From a virus: a DNA stretch of 64,000 nucleotides. Of the stretch, positions 9,823 through 48,535 are shown piece after piece. Under the pieces are notes generated by a model. It was not told where the DNA came from. It worked only from the letters and a program-made list of their open reading frames with translations, and ran no database searches. The stretch covers positions 32,001 through 96,000 of IMG/VR virus record IMGVR_UViG_3300009488_000018. One strand, 5' to 3'. A program made the translations under genes and the position numbers. Numbering within the stretch: position 1 is the first letter of the stretch; every line of letters begins with the position of its first letter.

Positions 9823-10125
9823 TTATTTTTTAATAGATGTTACTGTCGCTTTTTGTCTTTCTTCTAAAATACCATATACTTCGGGATAACCCAAAACTTT
9901 CATGGTCCTATTATCAATTAACATTACTTGGCCACCGAATTTCGCAAACAGAATAATATCTCCCTCTTTGATTGTAGGAACTTCTTCACCAACAGAAAGG
10001 ACACGACCATATCCTTGTGGGTCTTTCTCAGCAGTAGCTGGTATAATAATTCCTCCTTCTGTTTTCTCGTCCTGTTTTAGGACCTCCACAACTATTTTGT
10101 CTTTTACTGCTTTAACAAATTTCAT
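9823..10125 (-). CDS. groES: Co-chaperonin GroES (Cpn10)
   Basis: KTEGGIIIP, GRVLSVG, GDIILFAKFGG. Confidence 0.92.
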   Translation of the reverse strand: MKFVKAVKDKIVVEVLKQDEKTEGGIIIPATAEKDPQGYGRVLSVGEEVPTIKEGDIILFAKFGGQVMLIDNRTMKVLGYPEVYGILEERQKATVTSIKK

Positions 10126-10427
10126 TTACTTTTCTCCTTTATTCTAAGTTCATCCTCTTCTATAATCCTTAAAGGTGAAAATTCTTCAGATTCAAAAACT
10201 TCTTTTCCTACAAAGATTTTAGGAATTCTATATCGTTCTATTTTACTACCATCTTCAAAATAAGCAAACTGATCATCCAACCTTGCTATCTTTTGTATCC
10301 TCATATTGACTGTAGGAATTGGGTAGACGCTACTTCCTGGTTTTGTATCCTCTAGTAGACGCGCAGGATATTGTACTAATACAGGATTACCAATGCTAAG
10401 ATGAAGTGCTATTTTTATCTTCTCCAT
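10122..10427 (-). CDS. Hypothetical protein
   Basis: Overlaps both neighbours, suggesting translational coupling. Confidence 0.55.
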   Translation of the reverse strand: MEKIKIALHLSIGNPVLVQYPARLLEDTKPGSSVYPIPTVNMRIQKIARLDDQFAYFEDGSKIERYRIPKIFVGKEVFESEEFSPLRIIEEDELRIKEKSK

Positions 10428-22369: not shown

Positions 22370-23053
22370 ATGATTTTAGCAGTAGGCGACATCCACAGTG
22401 AGTTCAAACACTTAAATTCTCTAATCAGTGAGAAACAACCATCAATAATTCTTCAAGTTGGTGACTTCGGATACTGGCCAAAAGACAAGAAAAGTCAGAA
22501 AATAAAAAATAAAGATACTATAATCTACTTTTGTGACGGAAATCATGAAGACCATGAAAGTTTGAAGAACCTCGAAAACAACGAAATACAACAGAACATA
22601 TTTTATATGAGAAGAGGTTCTACTTTAACTCTACCGGATGGTCGAACTGTTTTATTTATGGGAGGTGCTTTCTCTCACGATTGGAGATATAAAGAATTTG
22701 GCAGTGATGAATGGAAATATAGAGAACCTGGAATTGACTGGTTTCCATTTATGGAACTAATTACTCAAGACGATATTAACAAAATTCCAAATATAAAAAT
22801 AGATATTGTTATTAGTCATACTGCTCCAGAAGAATTCTTCATGCCACCAAGAGACGGAGGATTAAAAGTTAAAGATCCATCAAGAGAATGTTTATCTCAA
22901 ATATTAAAAAAGTATAAACCAAAAGAGTGGTACTTTGGTCACTATCACTACTTTAAATATGGTTTTGATTATGGATGTAAATGGACAGCATTATCATATT
23001 CCAGATCAAATAGTAGATGGTGGGTTGGTTTAGATTTATGCAGGGTCGAGTAG
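22370..23053 (+). CDS. Calcineurin-like metallophosphoesterase
   Basis: GDIH, GDFG, GNHE, SHTAP, GHYH. Confidence 0.9.
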   Translation: MILAVGDIHSEFKHLNSLISEKQPSIILQVGDFGYWPKDKKSQKIKNKDTIIYFCDGNHEDHESLKNLENNEIQQNIFYMRRGSTLTLPDGRTVLFMGGAFSHDWRYKEFGSDEWKYREPGIDWFPFMELITQDDINKIPNIKIDIVISHTAPEEFFMPPRDGGLKVKDPSRECLSQILKKYKPKEWYFGHYHYFKYGFDYGCKWTALSYSRSNSRWWVGLDLCRVE

Positions 23054-38713: not shown

Positions 38714-39000
38714 GTTAGATTTTAGGAGGTAATAAAATTGACAAAGGTATTGATAATCGAGAGCGAAGCTGGTTGGGGGCGAAAAGTTGAAAAAGAAAAA
38801 GAGTTCGATAGTCGGGAAGAAGCCATACAGTATTGTAAGGATTATAACAACGAATATAATCCGGCTGACAAACCTACCCCAGTATGGTATATGTATGCTC
38901 GATTGGAAGATCAGGTTGAATATGGAATGTTGCGTTAAAAATCTAACCAACATATCGAGCAGGCCAGCTAACGCTAGCAGCTCATGTAAGACTGTTAGAG
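38714..39000 (+). mobile_element. Isolated integron-like gene cassette (ORF 38738..38938 plus attC-like site 38941..39000)
   Basis: Begins GTTAGATTTT; the ORF is followed by its exact complement AAAATCTAAC and a 60-bp imperfect palindrome ending GTTAGAG. Confidence 0.65.
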
Positions 39001-39139: not shown

Positions 39140-39754
39140 ATGAATCCATTTGGAAAGATCATAGAAAAAAAAGATGGTACCCTGGATGCTATAATGACTC
39201 GCCAACTTACACAAAATGAATTGGAAGGGACAACAGTAGTAAATTTGAGACATATGTGTATTCGCTACTATAACATTCCAGGTATGACCCATAAAAGAAA
39301 AAATGTGATTATCGATGCTATCCTTAAAAAATATAAGACATTAGATAAAATAAAATATCAACTATTTATTTCTGAAAAACAAGCTAGAGTAATCACATCT
39401 GCTCTTGACTTGTTTTCTAGGATAGGAATTGGTCAACTCGAAGAAATTTTGAGACATCCACAATATGCAAATGTAATTTTCAACAACAATGCCACTTACA
39501 AAGTTTGCAAAGAATTATTAGATGAAACAAAAAAGCTTCTTACGAATTTTCCTCCTAATGCATCTTATGGCATAGGAAATCCTGAAGTACATAGCGATTG
39601 TACTATATCTTACGATCTTATGCAAGTTATTAGACATAGACTTGCATGGGATAATAATCCTGAAGGAGGATTACAAGTCAGCTTTGGTAAACCAATGCGC
39701 TTTTCTAATGAAGAAGAATTAGCAAAGATCAAACAGAAGACAACTAAATTTTAG
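39140..39754 (+). CDS. Hypothetical protein
   Basis: 204-aa ORF. Confidence 0.6.
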   Translation: MNPFGKIIEKKDGTLDAIMTRQLTQNELEGTTVVNLRHMCIRYYNIPGMTHKRKNVIIDAILKKYKTLDKIKYQLFISEKQARVITSALDLFSRIGIGQLEEILRHPQYANVIFNNNATYKVCKELLDETKKLLTNFPPNASYGIGNPEVHSDCTISYDLMQVIRHRLAWDNNPEGGLQVSFGKPMRFSNEEELAKIKQKTTKF

Positions 39755-39828
39755 CGCCTGTAGCTCAGTGGATACAGAGCACCAGGCTACGAACTTGGGG
39801 GTCGGGGGTTCGAATCCCCCCAGGCGTT
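39754..39828 (+). tRNA. tRNA-Arg(ACG)
   Basis: CCAGG-CTACGAA-CTTGG. Confidence 0.92.
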
Positions 39829-39861
39829 TCACAAACTAGAACAAATCTGAAGAGGTTAAAA

Positions 39862-40038
39862 ATGTTTCCAGAATTATTAGTACATCCACTAACTTGGATA
39901 ATATTAGCTTTTAATACAGCAATATTAGCACTTATAATATGTATTCTTATGGGAATACTTATAATAATAATCCTATTGTTTTTTCCAGAAAGATCAAAAT
40001 TAAGACAACGACTTGTAGACTTTGCAAGCCAAGAATAA
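39862..40038 (+). CDS. Small hydrophobic membrane protein
   Basis: GAGG RBS; MFPELLVHPLTWIILAF...; below the ORF-track length cutoff. Confidence 0.55.
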   Translation: MFPELLVHPLTWIILAFNTAILALIICILMGILIIIILLFFPERSKLRQRLVDFASQE

Positions 40039-40093
40039 ACGCCTGTAGCTAGAGCACCAGGCTACGAACTTGGGGTTCGAATCCCCAGGCGTT
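40039..40093 (+). pseudogene. Internally deleted copy of tRNA-Arg(ACG)
   Basis: Near-identical acceptor stem, identical anticodon arm and T loop; D loop and variable region missing. Confidence 0.8.
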
Positions 40094-40104
40094 CTATAGA
40101 GAAG

Positions 40105-40822: not shown

Positions 40823-40896
40823 ACGCCTGTAGCTCAGTCTGGGAGAGCGTCGGTCCTACAAACCGACAGTCATAGGTTCAAACCCTATCAGGCGTA
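40823..40896 (+). tRNA. tRNA-Val(UAC), C33
   Basis: TCGGT-CCTACAA-ACCGA, A73. Confidence 0.85.
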
Positions 40897-40903
40897 TAAT
40901 TAT

Positions 40904-40980
40904 AGTACTGTAGCTCAGCGGTCCAGAGCACGCGACTTATAATCGTGAGGCCGATGGTTCGAATCCATCCAGTACTACTA
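40904..40980 (+). tRNA. tRNA-Ile(UAU)
   Basis: CGCGA-CTTATAA-TCGTG, A73; body resembles tRNA-Ile at 9453. Confidence 0.9.
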
Positions 40981-43891
40981 AAACTTAGTGGACATAAAGT
41001 AGAGACGGGGAACTTTACAAAGGAGGTAGAATGAGACCAGGCGATAGAAAACAAAGATGGCAGAGTACATGTACCATTGAGGGAATAATATTATTCCTGA
41101 TTGGGTTGTTTTTTGCCTACTCTGGATTGATGGCTCCAAGAAACGGTTGGATCGTTTTATTAATAGCCTTGGGTGCATTATGGGGGTCAATGAAATCTTT
41201 TACTGATGCAAAACGCGGATGGAAGATGACGGATAAGCGCCCGCCTTGGGCTGATAGGCATGACGCTATAGACAGGGGCGATTTAACATTATATAAAAGA
41301 TACCCTCATTGGCGACCTAATATACAATCTAACAAAGTACTCAACTCCAAACCAACTAAAGCTGGCGGGGTTAATTAATTGTTAAGGAGAGTCTTATGAT
41401 TACACCATCAGAGAGAATTCAGGCAGTTAAAGAATGGAACGAGTCAGGGTTTCATGAGTTAACGTGTGGAATTGATTCCAACCATCCTCCACTCGTAGCG
41501 GCAGAAACTCCATTTGGCGTGTATCTCTTCTGTACAGCGAATAAATGTGGATATACTCAGCCATTTTGGAAAGTCCCAGCTGTGGTATGGTTATCGTTTT
41601 TTGAGCGACACGCCTCCCCACAAGTCACTCAAGATGAAGTAGACTCACCATGGTTTTGTATTGAATGTAAACATGATGGCAATACAGGCCCAAAGTGTGA
41701 CAATTGCCTTATGCCACGCCGATGATCTTAATTTGGGAGGCTGACAATGAAAAAAGCTATATGCAATCGTGTAGATCTTAAACATAAGAAATGCCAAATA
41801 ACTTCATGTTATCATTATAGCATACATGAATCAATAGGATGTGAAAAATGGCACGAATGTCATTACTACAAAGTGCCAGTTAGATGCTTTTATGTCTCCA
41901 GAAGAATATGGAGTGAAGAGAGAAGACTAGAGCAGCTTAGTTCAAATATTAGGACGAATTCTAAAGGAGACATTTATGAGTTTATATTATGCTGAAACAG
42001 GTCTTGGTTGTTGTATTAGAGAAGCAACCAGTTTAAAAAATGCAAGAAATATAATTCTTAGAGAGGTTGGTACATATAATGGTCCCAAAATTGTTCGTAA
42101 GGCCAGTAAAGATGATATAAATTGGGTTAATAGTATGGGTGGATATGTACCAAAAATTCACCCCCAACCAAGTACTTAACTCCAAACCAGCCAAAGCTGA
42201 TTAGTTTTTCGTTATGTTTCAAGGAGGATAAAATGAATGAACAACTTTATGAGCAAGCATCAGAGGCTATAGAAAAATTGTTCTCTGATAAATCTGTATC
42301 ACAAGAACAGGCAAGGGAAAATTTGGAATCACTCATTGGTGAAATCGAAATAATGCTTGAAAGTATGGAGGAAACCTAACAACGCGCTCAACTCACTGTT
42401 AGGATTCAAACCAAATAACAATAACGCAGTATCTTAAGTGTAGACAATCCAGTAGTTGTGAGGGTTAGCTCCACGTTAGATTGCTCTTTAAGGAGTTATT
42501 ATGAGTTGTAAAGAAGGATATAGGGGCGAATGTTGCTGTGAGTGTGAACATCAACTTAAAATCCATGTTTGCACTTGTGGAATCTGCCCCACCATAGAAG
42601 GATATATCTGTATTTTATCCCATGTCATAGATCATAACTATCATTGTACCTATAAGACGAATAAGCATGGTGCGTGTGAGTGTTTTATGTTGAGAAAGTA
42701 ATCGAACAAAACACTCAACCCAGACCCATAAATATCAAGCTGATGAGTTTTGTTATACAGAAAGGAGGAAAGAGATATGAGTTACTTTTGGTTTTCATTT
42801 TCTAAGAATGGGAAAAATCAGGGATGTATTAATGTTGAAGCTGATACATCAGAAATAGCAATGAAAAATGCGATAGAATTAAATATCGTACCAAAACATG
42901 ACGATGTCGAAACATACAAAATCGATGAACCAGAGATACCCATTAATGTTTTAGTGTCTCCAGAAGAAATGAAGCAGATGGAGTATGATTCAGTAAAATA
43001 TAAAAAAAACTCAACCTAAACCCATAAATATCAATTTTGTTATGCCGCTATGTATGGTGCAAGATCATACTCATCGGGGGCAGTAAACCTACGGGCTGCT
43101 GGCTGTCTATGGTGCCTGAGATGGAACCAGCTAGCGGCATAACAAATCGCTGAAGTCGGAATCGGGAATGCTATGGAGTAAGTGAAGAACCCGAGTGCAC
43201 TTGGGTTGCAGGTGACCGAGCCTGACGTTCCCGAATTTTCCTTAGCCCAACTGATTAGTTTAATGTTATACAAAAGGAGGAAAGATGAAGAAATGGCCAG
43301 AGGATGGTTCTACGGTACAGTTTGCAGAAATAGTTGAGTCCGTCAGAAAGGCAATACTCTTTGCATATAATATTAAAAGGAAAAACAGGAATAGAAGCAT
43401 ACCTTGGGATGGACTTGATATTGGAAATGATTCAAAAGCGACTTGCTTTTCTCCAGAGGAACAACTTCAACTAGAACATTTGCGTTATTCTGAAAATGAT
43501 CAAGGACGGGATGCTCTAGATGAAATACTAAGTATAGCTGTCCGATTAGGGATTGAACAAGGACAGAGGATTTTTAAAAAAGGTACAGAATATCAAATGA
43601 TGAAAATACGGTTGAACTTAATAGAAAATCTAACAAATCACTCAGTCCAACCGAACAGACCAACTGGTTAGTTTAACCGTTAACAATCCTTCTTCAGGAG
43701 ATTAATATGCAAATATGTAAATTTTGTCAAAAGTCCTATGATGTAAAAGAAACCAAAAGGGTTTTCGGTGATATGTGGTGGATATACATTTATTGCTCTG
43801 CACAATGTTATACAAAAGATCAGGTTGTTAACAAAACACCTAACTCAGACCATGCTAACCGTCCGTCCGGATGAACTCAGCTGCGTAAAAC

Positions 43892-44535
43892 TCTATATAA
43901 AATGTAAGTGAAACTGCGGGCCAGGCTTTAAAAGAAAGGAGATAAAGGCCATGCGAATAATTAAATCCAAAAGATTAATGTTACTACTCATTAGTTTCGC
44001 TTCGATCTTTGCTCTTGTAACGACCTCTCTTGCACAGGAGAAGATTAAGCTCGCGGGGAAGCGATACGGGGTCAGAACTAAAGCGGAAGTGATTAAGCTT
44101 GATGACACCAAGGGGCACATCCTTATCCTCTCGGAGTCAAAGGGCACCGATGCCACTACTGGTGCCCAGTTTGTTAGCACTGCATTCGGTGATTATATTA
44201 AGGGAAATGGACCACATTGGGGCTACGGAAAAGCTATAGACCCAGATGGCGATGTCACTTTTAGTACATTTAAATCAAAGTTTACCACCACCCTTTCCCC
44301 CGAAGGCAAACCGATCACTACATTTGAAGGGACTTGGTCTTTCACAAAAGGAACTGGTAAGTATGAGAACGCCCAGGGGGGCGGCACCTTCAAGGGAAAG
44401 GTTATAGGACCAGGAATATTCACATATGATTGGGAAGGCGAATACTCTATTAAGAAGTAAGAGACAGCCTTCTCTTACAACCCCTAGTATTACAATCTTT
44501 TGCTAGTTCGCAGTTTCACTTACATTTTATATAGA
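43892..44535. mobile_element. Element bounded by perfect 27-bp terminal inverted repeats, carrying one gene
   Basis: TCTATATAAAATGTAAGTGAAACTGCG (43892-43918) / CGCAGTTTCACTTACATTTTATATAGA (44509-44535). Confidence 0.7.
43951..44460 (+). CDS. Secreted beta-rich protein
   Basis: Signal peptide ending SLA-Q; GTWSFTKGTGKY; visibly higher GC than the flanks. Confidence 0.7.
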   Translation: MRIIKSKRLMLLLISFASIFALVTTSLAQEKIKLAGKRYGVRTKAEVIKLDDTKGHILILSESKGTDATTGAQFVSTAFGDYIKGNGPHWGYGKAIDPDGDVTFSTFKSKFTTTLSPEGKPITTFEGTWSFTKGTGKYENAQGGGTFKGKVIGPGIFTYDWEGEYSIKK

Positions 44536-45026
44536 ACATAACTAATTAGTTTTTCATTGGGCGGTTTCGTCCAGAAAGGAAAATCATGAGCGAGAAATTA
44601 ACTGATGAACAAATTAAGAACTGGCGCGAAGTTCTTGTCGGAATGATTGGACCATACGCTCTAATAATGCCAAGGGAAGAAATCCAGGCATTTCGTGACA
44701 AAACGCAAAATGCCGTCCAACAAGTCGCTCAACCAAATCTGGATAAACCGGCAGCTTAATTCTGTCGTTAGACTATACAGGAGATCATAATGATAGAACT
44801 AAAACGATACACCATAATGTCAAGTGCTAAGGGTCCAAATCGTGATACTATTGAAGATCCAGATGGACAATGGATCTTCGATCCAGGTCATAAGATAAAT
44901 TTAGATAAATCCAACGATCGTCGTTGTGAATATTGTGGTGCTGAGAAGGATCCAACAATAAAAACTTTGTGTGGCAAATGCCGTATGTAAGAGGATGTTA
45001 AACCAAAGAAATAACAGGAGGTAAAA

Positions 45027-46010
45027 ATGAAGACCGTAACTTCACAAGCTGAATTTGAAGAGAAGCTAAAAGAAGGTTTGAGATCTTTTAAATTTAAGGG
45101 TTTCAGTGGTGTATTGAAGGGAGATACTCATATTCATCTTTATGGTAATTCTCAAGCCTATCTACTGGGAAACTCTCACACTACATTACATCAAAGCGCT
45201 TTTGCTGCATTATGGGGAAACTGTCATGCTAGGCTTCATGACAGTTCTCATGCCGTGTTACGAGGTAACTCTTCTGCTGAGCTACATGGAACCCCTTATT
45301 CTTCCCCCCATGTTTCACTTCAGGACAATTCTTATGTCATACTACGCGGACATTCTCATGCTGATTTATGGGGGCATTCTTTTGCTGAGATACGGGAAAG
45401 TTCTCATGCTATACTACGGGGATATTCCCAAGCTATATTATGGGGACATTCTCATGCTGATTTACGTGATGATTCTTTTGCTGAGCTATGGGGAAGTTCT
45501 TCCGTTATCTTACAAGGGAGATCTCGTGCTATGCTACGGGATTTCTCGATAGGTTATCTAAGGAGCAAGAGAGCAAAGGCTAAAGCTGGAAAACGTGCAA
45601 CCATAATTGAAATGATCTACCCTGAAGATATCAAACAATGGGCAGCACTGAAAAGGGTGTGTATTAGACGAAACAGAATAATGCTTTGGAAAGCTGTGAG
45701 ACAAAATGGTACTGACTTCTATACTGGTCAAGTTAATTATGATACTAAGAAAGAAATTACCGCACCAGACTGGGATTCGAAATATTCTCAAGAATGTGGT
45801 TTTGGTTTGCACCTTGCCGATTCTCCTAGTGCTGCACGACTATTTTGTTCAAGAGATCAGCGTAAAACTGCCCGGTTATTCCGAGTGTCAGTTAATATAA
45901 ATGATTGTATCTGCTTTCCAGGCATGCCACATTATCCAATGAAATTACGAGCACGAGCATGTCGGAAAGTGAAAGAATATCCAATTAGTTATAACCTTTG
46001 GGAGGAGTAA
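45027..46010 (+). CDS. Octapeptide-repeat (beta-helix-like) phage protein
   Basis: Tandem G/D-x-S-x-A-x-L-x units; C-terminal ECGFGLHL. Confidence 0.7.
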   Translation: MKTVTSQAEFEEKLKEGLRSFKFKGFSGVLKGDTHIHLYGNSQAYLLGNSHTTLHQSAFAALWGNCHARLHDSSHAVLRGNSSAELHGTPYSSPHVSLQDNSYVILRGHSHADLWGHSFAEIRESSHAILRGYSQAILWGHSHADLRDDSFAELWGSSSVILQGRSRAMLRDFSIGYLRSKRAKAKAGKRATIIEMIYPEDIKQWAALKRVCIRRNRIMLWKAVRQNGTDFYTGQVNYDTKKEITAPDWDSKYSQECGFGLHLADSPSAARLFCSRDQRKTARLFRVSVNINDCICFPGMPHYPMKLRARACRKVKEYPISYNLWEE

Positions 46011-48460: not shown

Positions 48461-48535
48461 TCCCCTGTAGCTTAGTCAGGTCAAAAGCAGAGGTCTCTAA
48501 AACCTTGGACGTGGGTTCAAATCCCACCAGGGGAT
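48461..48535 (+). tRNA. Amber suppressor tRNA (anticodon CUA)
   Basis: TCCCCTG/CAGGGGA acceptor, GAGGT-CTCTAAA-ACCTT anticodon arm, GTGGG-TTCAAAT-CCCAC T arm. Confidence 0.9.

Follow-up and report, generated by a model that had tools for sequence, protein, structure and literature searches.

The chief carriers of multi-resistance are integron cassettes; according to recent preprints, the same holds for many anti-phage defence genes. The gene array described here bears on two questions, namely the movement of cassettes from lineage to lineage and the first acquisition of an attC site by a gene. It was found at 41.0-45.0 kb of a 64,000-nucleotide stretch of viral DNA (the window), which corresponds to bases 32001-96000 of an IMG/VR virus record (124,327 bp, estimated to be ~40% complete). 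The array carries about a dozen small genes, seven intact attC sites (S1-S4, S6, S7 and S9), one truncated site (S5) and one split site (S8). A further, isolated site was designated S0, the cassettes or their open reading frames (ORFs) were numbered C0-C10, and all coordinates are window positions.

In a survey of 10,705 phage genomes, Qi, Rajabal, Ghaly, Tetu and Gillings (2023, PMC9892861) recorded 3 complete integrons, 1 In0 and 17 clusters of attC sites lacking integrases (CALINs); of six phage attC sites assayed with IntI1, five recombined with attI1. One of the published CALINs was that of phage TJE1, whose sites recombined with IntI1 (PMC9892861). The initial annotation of the window had remarked that integrons are rarely reported in phages; this was right, but arrays of the kind have been published. 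According to Loot et al. (bioRxiv 10.1101/2022.09.11.507474), IntI can insert cassettes outside att sites in bacterial genomes (attG; isolated attC sites, 'SALIN'). Repeated stem-loops are also known from T4-type phages, where the promoter-stem-loop (PeSL) consists of a strong, early promoter of the sigma-70 type and a terminator stem-loop, flanks ORFans and is associated with mini-circles (Arbiol et al. 2010, PMC2839356).

Based on all analyses, it was concluded that the array very probably consists of genuine integron attC sites and cassettes with no integrase nearby, i.e. a CALIN, in the genome of a large, distantly T4-like phage, where it occupies the tRNA-rich accessory region. The assignment to CALINs was made because no tyrosine recombinase was present on the contig; seven model-supported sites lay within 3.4 kb.

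The region of 40.5-45.6 kb was read as a series of short ORFs that carry a Shine-Dalgarno motif; after each of them comes an imperfect palindrome opening with ...AAC and closing with GTT.... Each ORF ended in, or just before, its site; in the initial annotation, the ORFs had been described as stopping in the AAC box or reading through it. Read by hand, the sites followed the plan R'' (...AAC), 5 nt, L'' (mostly CTCAAC), a variable middle, L' (mostly TTAG), ~5 nt and R' (GTT...). The AAC and GTT were invariant across the seven aligned sites and stood in RYYYAAC and GTTRRRY boxes; the left spacer was 5 nt, the right one mostly 5 nt, and the site lengths ranged from 56 to 135 nt. An extra base in L'' relative to L' was recognized by hand in seven of the nine sites, being on the top strand a C in S1, S3, S7, S8 and S9, a T in S2 and a G in S6. 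For the five sites with the extra C, an extrahelical G would therefore stand on the bottom strand. These features are those known from attC, namely R'', L'', L' and R' boxes, a spacer that stays unpaired, an extrahelical base close to L'' and a terminal part that varies (PMC5027507).

Standard pairs occupied 90.4% of the pair cells in the alignment of the phage sites, versus 3.6-50.7% in slid registers, and the covariation was slight, as is to be expected with seven similar sequences. A repeat finder assigned the left arms to families D3, D4 and D6 and the right arms to D7 and D14. Two pairs of sites were nearly identical, S1/S2 (88% over 34 nt) and S4/S5 (90% over 31 nt). The left-arm motif was enriched in the window (58 matches versus 31.9 +/- 5.5 in shuffles), and all four exact copies, as well as ten plus-strand copies in total, were located between 41331 and 44733. 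The right-arm motif alone was not enriched in the window (69 versus 64.4 +/- 8.4 in shuffles).

Recognition of the sites was assayed by home-made covariance models, of which R1 was built from four phage sites, R2 from the seven intact phage sites (61 positions, 11 pairs) and R3 from 30 bacterial attC sites only. R1 recovered the three held-out sites with exact ends (S7, 24.4 bits; S9, 15.9 bits; S4, 13.8 bits), the scores of S9 and S4 being no better than those of three unrelated matches. When the whole 124-kb record was searched, R2 matched its seven sites only. In the window-wide search, these sites scored 63.5 (S1), 51.3 (S2), 53.7 (S3), 46.2 (S4), 40.3 (S6), 44.4 (S7) and 47.0 bits (S9), and the truncated S5 was added. 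R2 also matched the aadA1 attC of plasmid R100 (L003:13475-13534) on the aadA1 strand over its full length (29.9 bits, E 5.8e-4). Further, 80 bacterial loci (1.0 Mb) were fetched with an IntI alignment and oriented with intI on the plus strand. All 25 R2 matches in these loci (E <= 1; 15 of the 80 loci) were upstream of intI on the minus strand, and in a narrower run on the IntI loci 30 of 30 matches were upstream on the opposite strand. It is upstream of intI, on the opposite strand, that cassette arrays lie.

The bacterial model R3, run unfiltered on the 64-kb window, gave S3 (41.1 bits, E 2.5e-7), S9 (27.9 bits, E 2.3e-4), S7 (21.5 bits), S2 (17.2 bits), S1 (14.3 bits) and S6 (12.3 bits) as its top six matches, all with exact ends, and the next match in the window scored 9.9 bits. 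In phage TJE1, R3 detected three sites after orf1-orf3 (24.1, 23.9 and 14.8 bits), which were taken as the published ones. The reciprocal recognition between the phage-only and bacterial-only models supported the assignment of the sites as integron-type attC, as opposed to look-alike hairpins.

Several other searches were negative or were rejected. Rfam returned only tRNAs and sub-threshold noise for 40.9-46.7 kb, and R2 had no match in two large phage contigs and a third record (L001, L002 and L116; 348 kb). A weak R1/R2 match at 22751-22829 was rejected, being inside a coding region. The motif of the S1/S2 middle gave 0 matches in IMG/VR, and a two-arm pattern yielded one contig with a single 15.3-bit match that was judged to be due to chance.

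A second line of evidence came from the cassette ends. In integrons, the bases after the G of the R' box belong to the next cassette and match the R'' of that cassette. At eight junctions, the 7 nt that follow GTT were compared with the 7 nt that precede AAC in the next site; 36 of the 56 positions were complementary, while permutations gave a mean of 19.8 (sd 3.8) and reached 36 in 5 of 100,000 cases. Between R' and R'' of the same site, 20 of 63 positions were complementary. The best junctions showed 6/7, 7/7, 6/7 and 5/7, while those from S1 to S2 and from S6 to S7 (2/7 each) carried no signal. Five such start/end complements had been quoted in the initial annotation, and all of them were present in the sequence. 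The complementarity was significant and supported its interpretation as a mark of insertion at G|TT. We proposed that integron-type recombination once placed each cassette at the G|TT of an R' box, since such an insertion would leave the first bases of the cassette complementary to the R'' of its own attC.

The sites could also be regulatory elements of the phage, either terminators or PeSL-like motifs, with no more than a resemblance to attC; they are indeed imperfect palindromes in the intergenic spaces of small genes that share one orientation, in a hyperplastic and tRNA-rich region. This explanation was considered highly improbable in view of the reciprocal recognition with bona fide attC and the significant own-end complementarity. 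Besides, ORFs read through the sites, and no T-run followed the stems. Neither promoter-like (28 versus 27.4 in shuffles) nor terminator-like sites (5 versus 5.8) were enriched, and none coincided with the attC sites. PeSL regulatory cassettes of T4-type phages were reportedly treated by Comeau et al. 2014 (PMC4122927) as well.

The array was then sought in sequencing runs. One run, probably the source, contained 98% of the sampled words of the stretch. Another 16 runs contained 5-18%; one of these names no study, and the others belong to eight named studies of marine sediment, cold seep and sediment. The contigs of four runs from four studies (X2, X3, X7 and X8) were compared with 40900-45100 at a likeness of >= 88%, parts of the stretch uncovered in these runs being no evidence of absence. 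Most cassettes were present in pieces, at ~88-99% identity, in other orders, and seven joints were identified. In X2, a contig that begins in tRNA-Ile (40968) joined C1 to C7. C2a was joined to C7 in X2, and in X7 two contigs ended at the same places (41637 and 43281); their loose ends overlapped and ran on from 41637 into a short attC. C2b was followed by C3 without C2c in X3 and X8 (41896 to 42201), and C3 by C5 without C4 in X2 and X3 (42391 to 42741). The middle part of S3 had 20 letters in place of 76 in X2 and X7. Two more joints were recorded in X2, one from cassette 6 to the inverted-repeat block (from 43872) without C7 and C8, where the window has C8, and one from C7 to C3.

In total, 13 of the 14 joint ends were in an attC or within 10 nt of it, a zone that makes up 22% of the stretch (binomial 3e-8, the ends being not fully independent). 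These comparisons showed that the array was not frozen: cassettes were gained and lost, one was translocated, and the breaks occurred at attC sites. The initial annotation had named constant gene content at the GTT boundaries as evidence that would speak against an integron. Order and content did differ at the sites in other samples, and the array thus withstood this test; the joints were, however, not at G|TT.

The turnover also bears on the possibility that a piece of a chromosomal integron of the host was taken up en bloc by illegitimate recombination and is carried passively as cargo, without any turnover in the phage. The missing integrase, the bacterial family of the ORF in the inverted-repeat element, the GC of several cassettes, higher than in core genes, and the chromosomal-integron fragments published in Vibrio phages (PMC9892861) would all agree with it. 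We nevertheless regarded it as quite unlikely. The order must have changed in the phage context, because the X2 contig retains the tRNA-Ile flank but joins C1 to C7; the isolated cassette C0 lies 2 kb upstream, past phage genes and tRNAs; and the C7 family occurs in other large phage contigs.

Several observations weighed against the assignment of the array as an integron-type CALIN. Neither IntI nor another tyrosine recombinase was found in the 124,327-bp record with TIGR02249 and PF00589, at E <= 0.001 and at E <= 1, control genomes being matched and the record being ~40% complete. This search had been suggested in the initial annotation, which had seen no integrase in the window. No recognisable attI or cassette promoter (Pc) was found at 40978-41031, between tRNA-Ile and C1, or before C0, no attI model having been applied. 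The models were home-made, R3 missed S4 and gave E > 0.05 for three of its six matches, and its training sites had been chosen by R2 and hence were biased toward the phage type; counter to this bias, they were much more GC-rich than the phage sites. C7 was not a typical integron cargo, because its homologues occurred in 27 loci without an adjoining attC. The breakpoints lay in the left arm, the middle, the right arm or a few bases past R', and none was at G|TT. One cassette had different right half-sites across samples; in another sample, C1 departed from the window sequence at 41367. The other contigs could belong to bacterial integrons, because only one was tied to a phage flank and they were short Logan contigs of 88-99% identity. 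Finally, searches of IMG/VR with the downstream proteins and the polymerase yielded no close phage relative for a locus-to-locus comparison.

In a clean IntI exchange, the complete attC stays attached to the cassette that precedes it. Since the breakpoints were inside the hairpins, IntI, homologous recombination between repeats, or both were considered for the present-day exchange. Under one such explanation, the sites are true attC by descent that now serve as mere dispersed repeats, and homologous recombination of the phage between the arms shuffles the cassettes in a PeSL-like manner, IntI being no longer involved. It was given a modest chance. Besides the position of the joints, it is favored by the C3-C5 site of X2 and X3, which combined the left arm of S3 with the right arm of S4, and by S1 and S2, whose left halves were 83% alike and right halves 38%. 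A T4-like polymerase and the PeSL-mediated shuffling and mini-circles described in PMC2839356 point the same way. On the other hand, the start/end complementarity requires insertion at G|TT at some time, and the move of C7 from after cassette 6 to after C1 needs more than one deletion between repeats. The left and right halves of the sites were not independent (Mantel r 0.405, with 1063 of 20,000 permutations as high), and short contigs at 88% likeness place breakpoints imprecisely.

The integron interpretation of the initial annotation thus held in part. Integron-type attC cassettes were indeed present in a real phage contig, while its proposal that the phage itself collects them was not borne out, given that the contig lacks an integrase and that 60% of the genome is missing, nor was exchange by IntI, the joints being inside the hairpins. 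Its proposal that the tRNA operon supplies transcription likewise lacked support, promoter-like and terminator-like sites being at the level of shuffles. Because no recombinase was found on the 124 kb, it would come from the host, as an IntI working in trans during infection, or be encoded on the missing ~60% of the genome. The first cassette could have entered the phage by IntI insertion outside att sites. Insertion of the attG/SALIN type would give a host IntI a route to plant a first phage cassette, with which the isolation of C0 and the absence of a recognisable attI fit, the published work dealing with bacterial genomes.

A more far-reaching model was also formulated, in which cassette exchange would be a functioning system maintained by the large virulent phages of anoxic sediments themselves. 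Integron-derived attC would be portable points of breakage and joining, genes of phage origin (the C7 family, for instance) would be recruited into cassettes, and the exchange would proceed inside the hairpin by a phage recombination function or an unrecognised enzyme, not by IntI at G|TT. The model seemed unlikely to us; if true, the array would be a natural case of cassette genesis and of IntI-independent cassette movement.

The contig encoded a portal protein, a DnaB-like helicase, a family-B DNA polymerase, a DNA ligase and 30 tRNAs, one of them a CUA suppressor. The polymerase was <30% identical to those of T4-like cyanophages, and its relatives in IMG/VR amounted to one fragment, 50% identical. 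From the gene set, the tRNAs, the polymerase divergence and the single IMG/VR relative, the phage was assigned to a large, poorly sampled, distantly T4-like lineage. By blastn, the array had no match among 50,697 phage records. It lies inside a 30-kb plus-strand block of small co-oriented genes and tRNAs, with tRNA-Val and tRNA-Ile (40823-40978, plus strand) as the phage flank directly upstream.

This setting argues against a chimeric assembly of a bacterial cassette array and phage DNA. Repeats of the attC type do break or misjoin short-read assemblies, and the record is a fragment assembled from a metagenome. However, the array was flanked on both sides by tRNA genes of the phage and by phage ORFs of the same orientation, an independent contig from another study bridged tRNA-Ile and C1, and the run that is possibly the source had 98% of the sampled words. 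A chimera was hardly credible on these grounds.

Some features around the array were recorded as well. A shortened copy of the tRNA-Arg gene (39753-39830) was noticed at 40040-40095, after a 58-aa ORF (39862-40038); it received no ARAGORN call. The tRNA with the CUA anticodon (an amber suppressor, called tRNA-Pyl by ARAGORN) is located at 48461-48535, 3.5 kb downstream of the array. The gene that follows the array (45027-46010) encodes 327 aa and contains about nine 24-nt (8-residue) repeats at 45149-45519. Its product had weak PHROG matches, including RIIB-like lysis-inhibitor families, and no relatives of this protein or of the downstream 247-aa protein were found in IMG/VR.

All cassettes are on the plus strand. 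The isolated C0 (38714-39000) begins with an R' box (38714-38723), followed by a 66-aa ORF (38738-38938) and the attC-like S0 (38941-39000). The start and the end of C0 were complementary at 10 of 10 positions. S0 reached 14.3 bits with R2 (E 0.043) in a search of 2.5 kb only and was not significant window-wide. Phage ORFs and three tRNAs separate C0 from C1.

In the array proper, the seven intact sites were recovered by the models at exactly the coordinates listed among the eleven sites of the initial annotation. C1 (41031-41387) has a membrane-like 115-aa ORF (41031-41378) that reads through S1 (41327-41387) and had no Pfam or PHROG match. C2a (41396-41725) is a chimeric ORF of 109 aa with an attC left arm near 41615-41637 inside, the left-arm motif being at 41619 with 2 mismatches. 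Its residues 1-76 belonged to one small-protein family (best match 83%) and residues 70-109 to the C-terminus of another (82%), a 40-residue zinc-ribbon tail, with the seam at the left arm. The seam suggests that exchange at the sites can make new fused genes. A degenerate site had been proposed at ~41612-41741; its left arm was confirmed, as other samples ran on from 41637 into a short attC and the ORF chimera breaks there, but no right arm was found, and the site is a scar.

The next unit (41747-42217) contains the ORFs C2b (41747-41995) and C2c (41976-42179) and the site S2 (42162-42217). C3 with S3 (42233-42481) comprises a 48-aa ORF (42233-42379) and a site of 108 nt (42374-42481) with a composite middle. 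S3 itself appears composite, in that its first 30 nt form a short hairpin whose ends, CCTAAC/GTTAGG, are perfectly complementary. C4 with S4 (42501-42758) comprises a Cys-rich 66-aa ORF (42501-42701) and the site at 42701-42758. In C5 (42777-43045), an 80-aa ORF (42777-43019) is followed by S5 (42998-43045). The site that had been placed at ~43000-43045 proved to be this truncated copy of S4 (13.8 bits with R2), with R'' mutated and L' missing. Cassette 6 (43041-43271) has no ORF and no Rfam family; it ends with S6 (43137-43271, 135 nt), and its start and end form a 15-nt inverted repeat with 100% complementarity. C7 with S7 (43285-43685) comprises a 128-aa ORF (43285-43671) and the site at 43628-43685.

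C8 with the left part of S8 (43707-43891) comprises a 55-aa ORF (43707-43874) and the left part at 43826-43891, with the left-arm motif at 43830. S8 is interrupted by an element of 644 bp (43892-44535, plus strand) with perfect 27-bp inverted repeats and a 169-aa signal-peptide ORF (43951-44460). The right arm (44536-44562) consists of L', a 5-nt spacer and an R' with ATT replacing GTT, and it belonged to repeat family D7, shared with the right arms of S2 and S6. Read by hand, the arms paired across the element, in agreement with the split site proposed at 43826-(44562). C9 with S9 (44586-44773) comprises a 57-aa ORF (44586-44759) and the site at 44715-44773. The last site is followed by C10 (44790-44990), a zinc-ribbon-like 66-aa ORF with a weak DUF7577 match (E 0.01). 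A degenerate site that had been proposed after it (~44909-45003) was dismissed, since its arms did not pair and neither R2 nor R3 had a match in 44900-45010.

Nine array ORFs (all except C3, C8 and C9) were scanned; none reached the Pfam cut-off or had a PHROG match. Several array ORFs were Cys-rich or zinc-ribbon-like, and the cassette GC was mixed (0.31-0.45 versus 0.30-0.33 in core genes). The array proteins had no tblastn match in the 80 bacterial integron loci. The cassettes would probably be expressed by read-through, because the ORFs are short, have strong ribosome-binding sites and are co-oriented with the flanking phage genes. No RNA run contained the stretch.

C7 had 10 homologues in a large protein collection, and relatives were found in 2 IMG/VR and 25 metagenome loci. 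These 27 loci (158 kb) contained no R2 match and no other array gene in synteny, and in two large phage contigs the homologue was among ordinary phage genes. The two family members, at 10001-10396 of a complete 181-kb phage (L001) and at 10001-10360 of a 140-kb phage fragment (L002), had unrelated neighbours. The residues W4 and P5 and the motifs RKN, QxRDAL and GxEQ were invariant in the family. The C-terminal dozen residues of C7, which the attC encodes, had no counterpart in the aligned homologues. The structure model of C7 (predicted local distance difference test score, pLDDT, 78) had no PDB match at E <= 0.001, and tblastn against isolated phages gave no match.

The ORF of the inverted-repeat element had 157 homologues, the named ones being from a deltaproteobacterium and from a Glassbacteria metagenome-assembled genome (sediment bacteria), and its Atlas clusters were mostly of Thermodesulfobacteriota and Acidobacteriota. 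The GC of the element was 0.449 versus 0.30-0.33 in core genes. The bacterial kinship of this ORF may be taken as a pointer to the host, as a lead only. No transposase and no clear target duplication were seen in the element, whose single gene is the signal-peptide gene.

Compared with chromosomal and mobile integrons, the array has the same site anatomy (as listed in PMC5027507), the order of ORF and then attC, and own-end complementarity. It resembles chromosomal arrays in the near-identical attC pairs S1/S2 and S4/S5. It differs from integrons in its location in a phage, in joints that are not at G|TT and in that the 124 kb yielded no intI and no recognisable attI or Pc, and from bacterial attC in that the phage sites are AT-rich (GC 0.36-0.47 versus 0.48-0.69 in the bacterial sites matched). 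The footprint points to G|TT, whereas the breakpoints of today lie inside the hairpins, and this mismatch makes the question of the mechanism concrete and testable. With PeSL, the array shares repeated stem-loops around small ORFans, a hyperplastic region of a T4-like phage and exchange between repeats; unlike PeSL, the sites have no enriched promoter or terminator signal and are recognized by attC models.

Among the closest known systems are the phage CALINs, such as that of TJE1, which likewise has attC sites and co-oriented small ORFs in a virulent-type phage without an integrase. With R3, the TJE1 sites scored 24.1, 23.9 and 14.8 bits and those of the array from 41.1 to 12.3 bits. Unlike TJE1 with its three sites, the array has seven intact, one truncated, one split and one isolated site. 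In addition, it belongs to a large phage with 30 tRNAs, one attC is interrupted by the inverted-repeat element, and the order differs between metagenomes. The array is a well-documented case in a large tRNA-rich phage, with cassette gain, loss and movement in four independent studies, and the C7 cassette is a usable test case for cassette genesis, because its family is found elsewhere in large phage contigs without attC. Arrays of attC in phages are already known, and four points are particular to the present one, with no claim that they are unpublished: the canonical gene-then-site orientation, the turnover across four studies, a cassette gene (C7) whose family otherwise occurs without attC, and the interruption of one attC by the inverted-repeat element.

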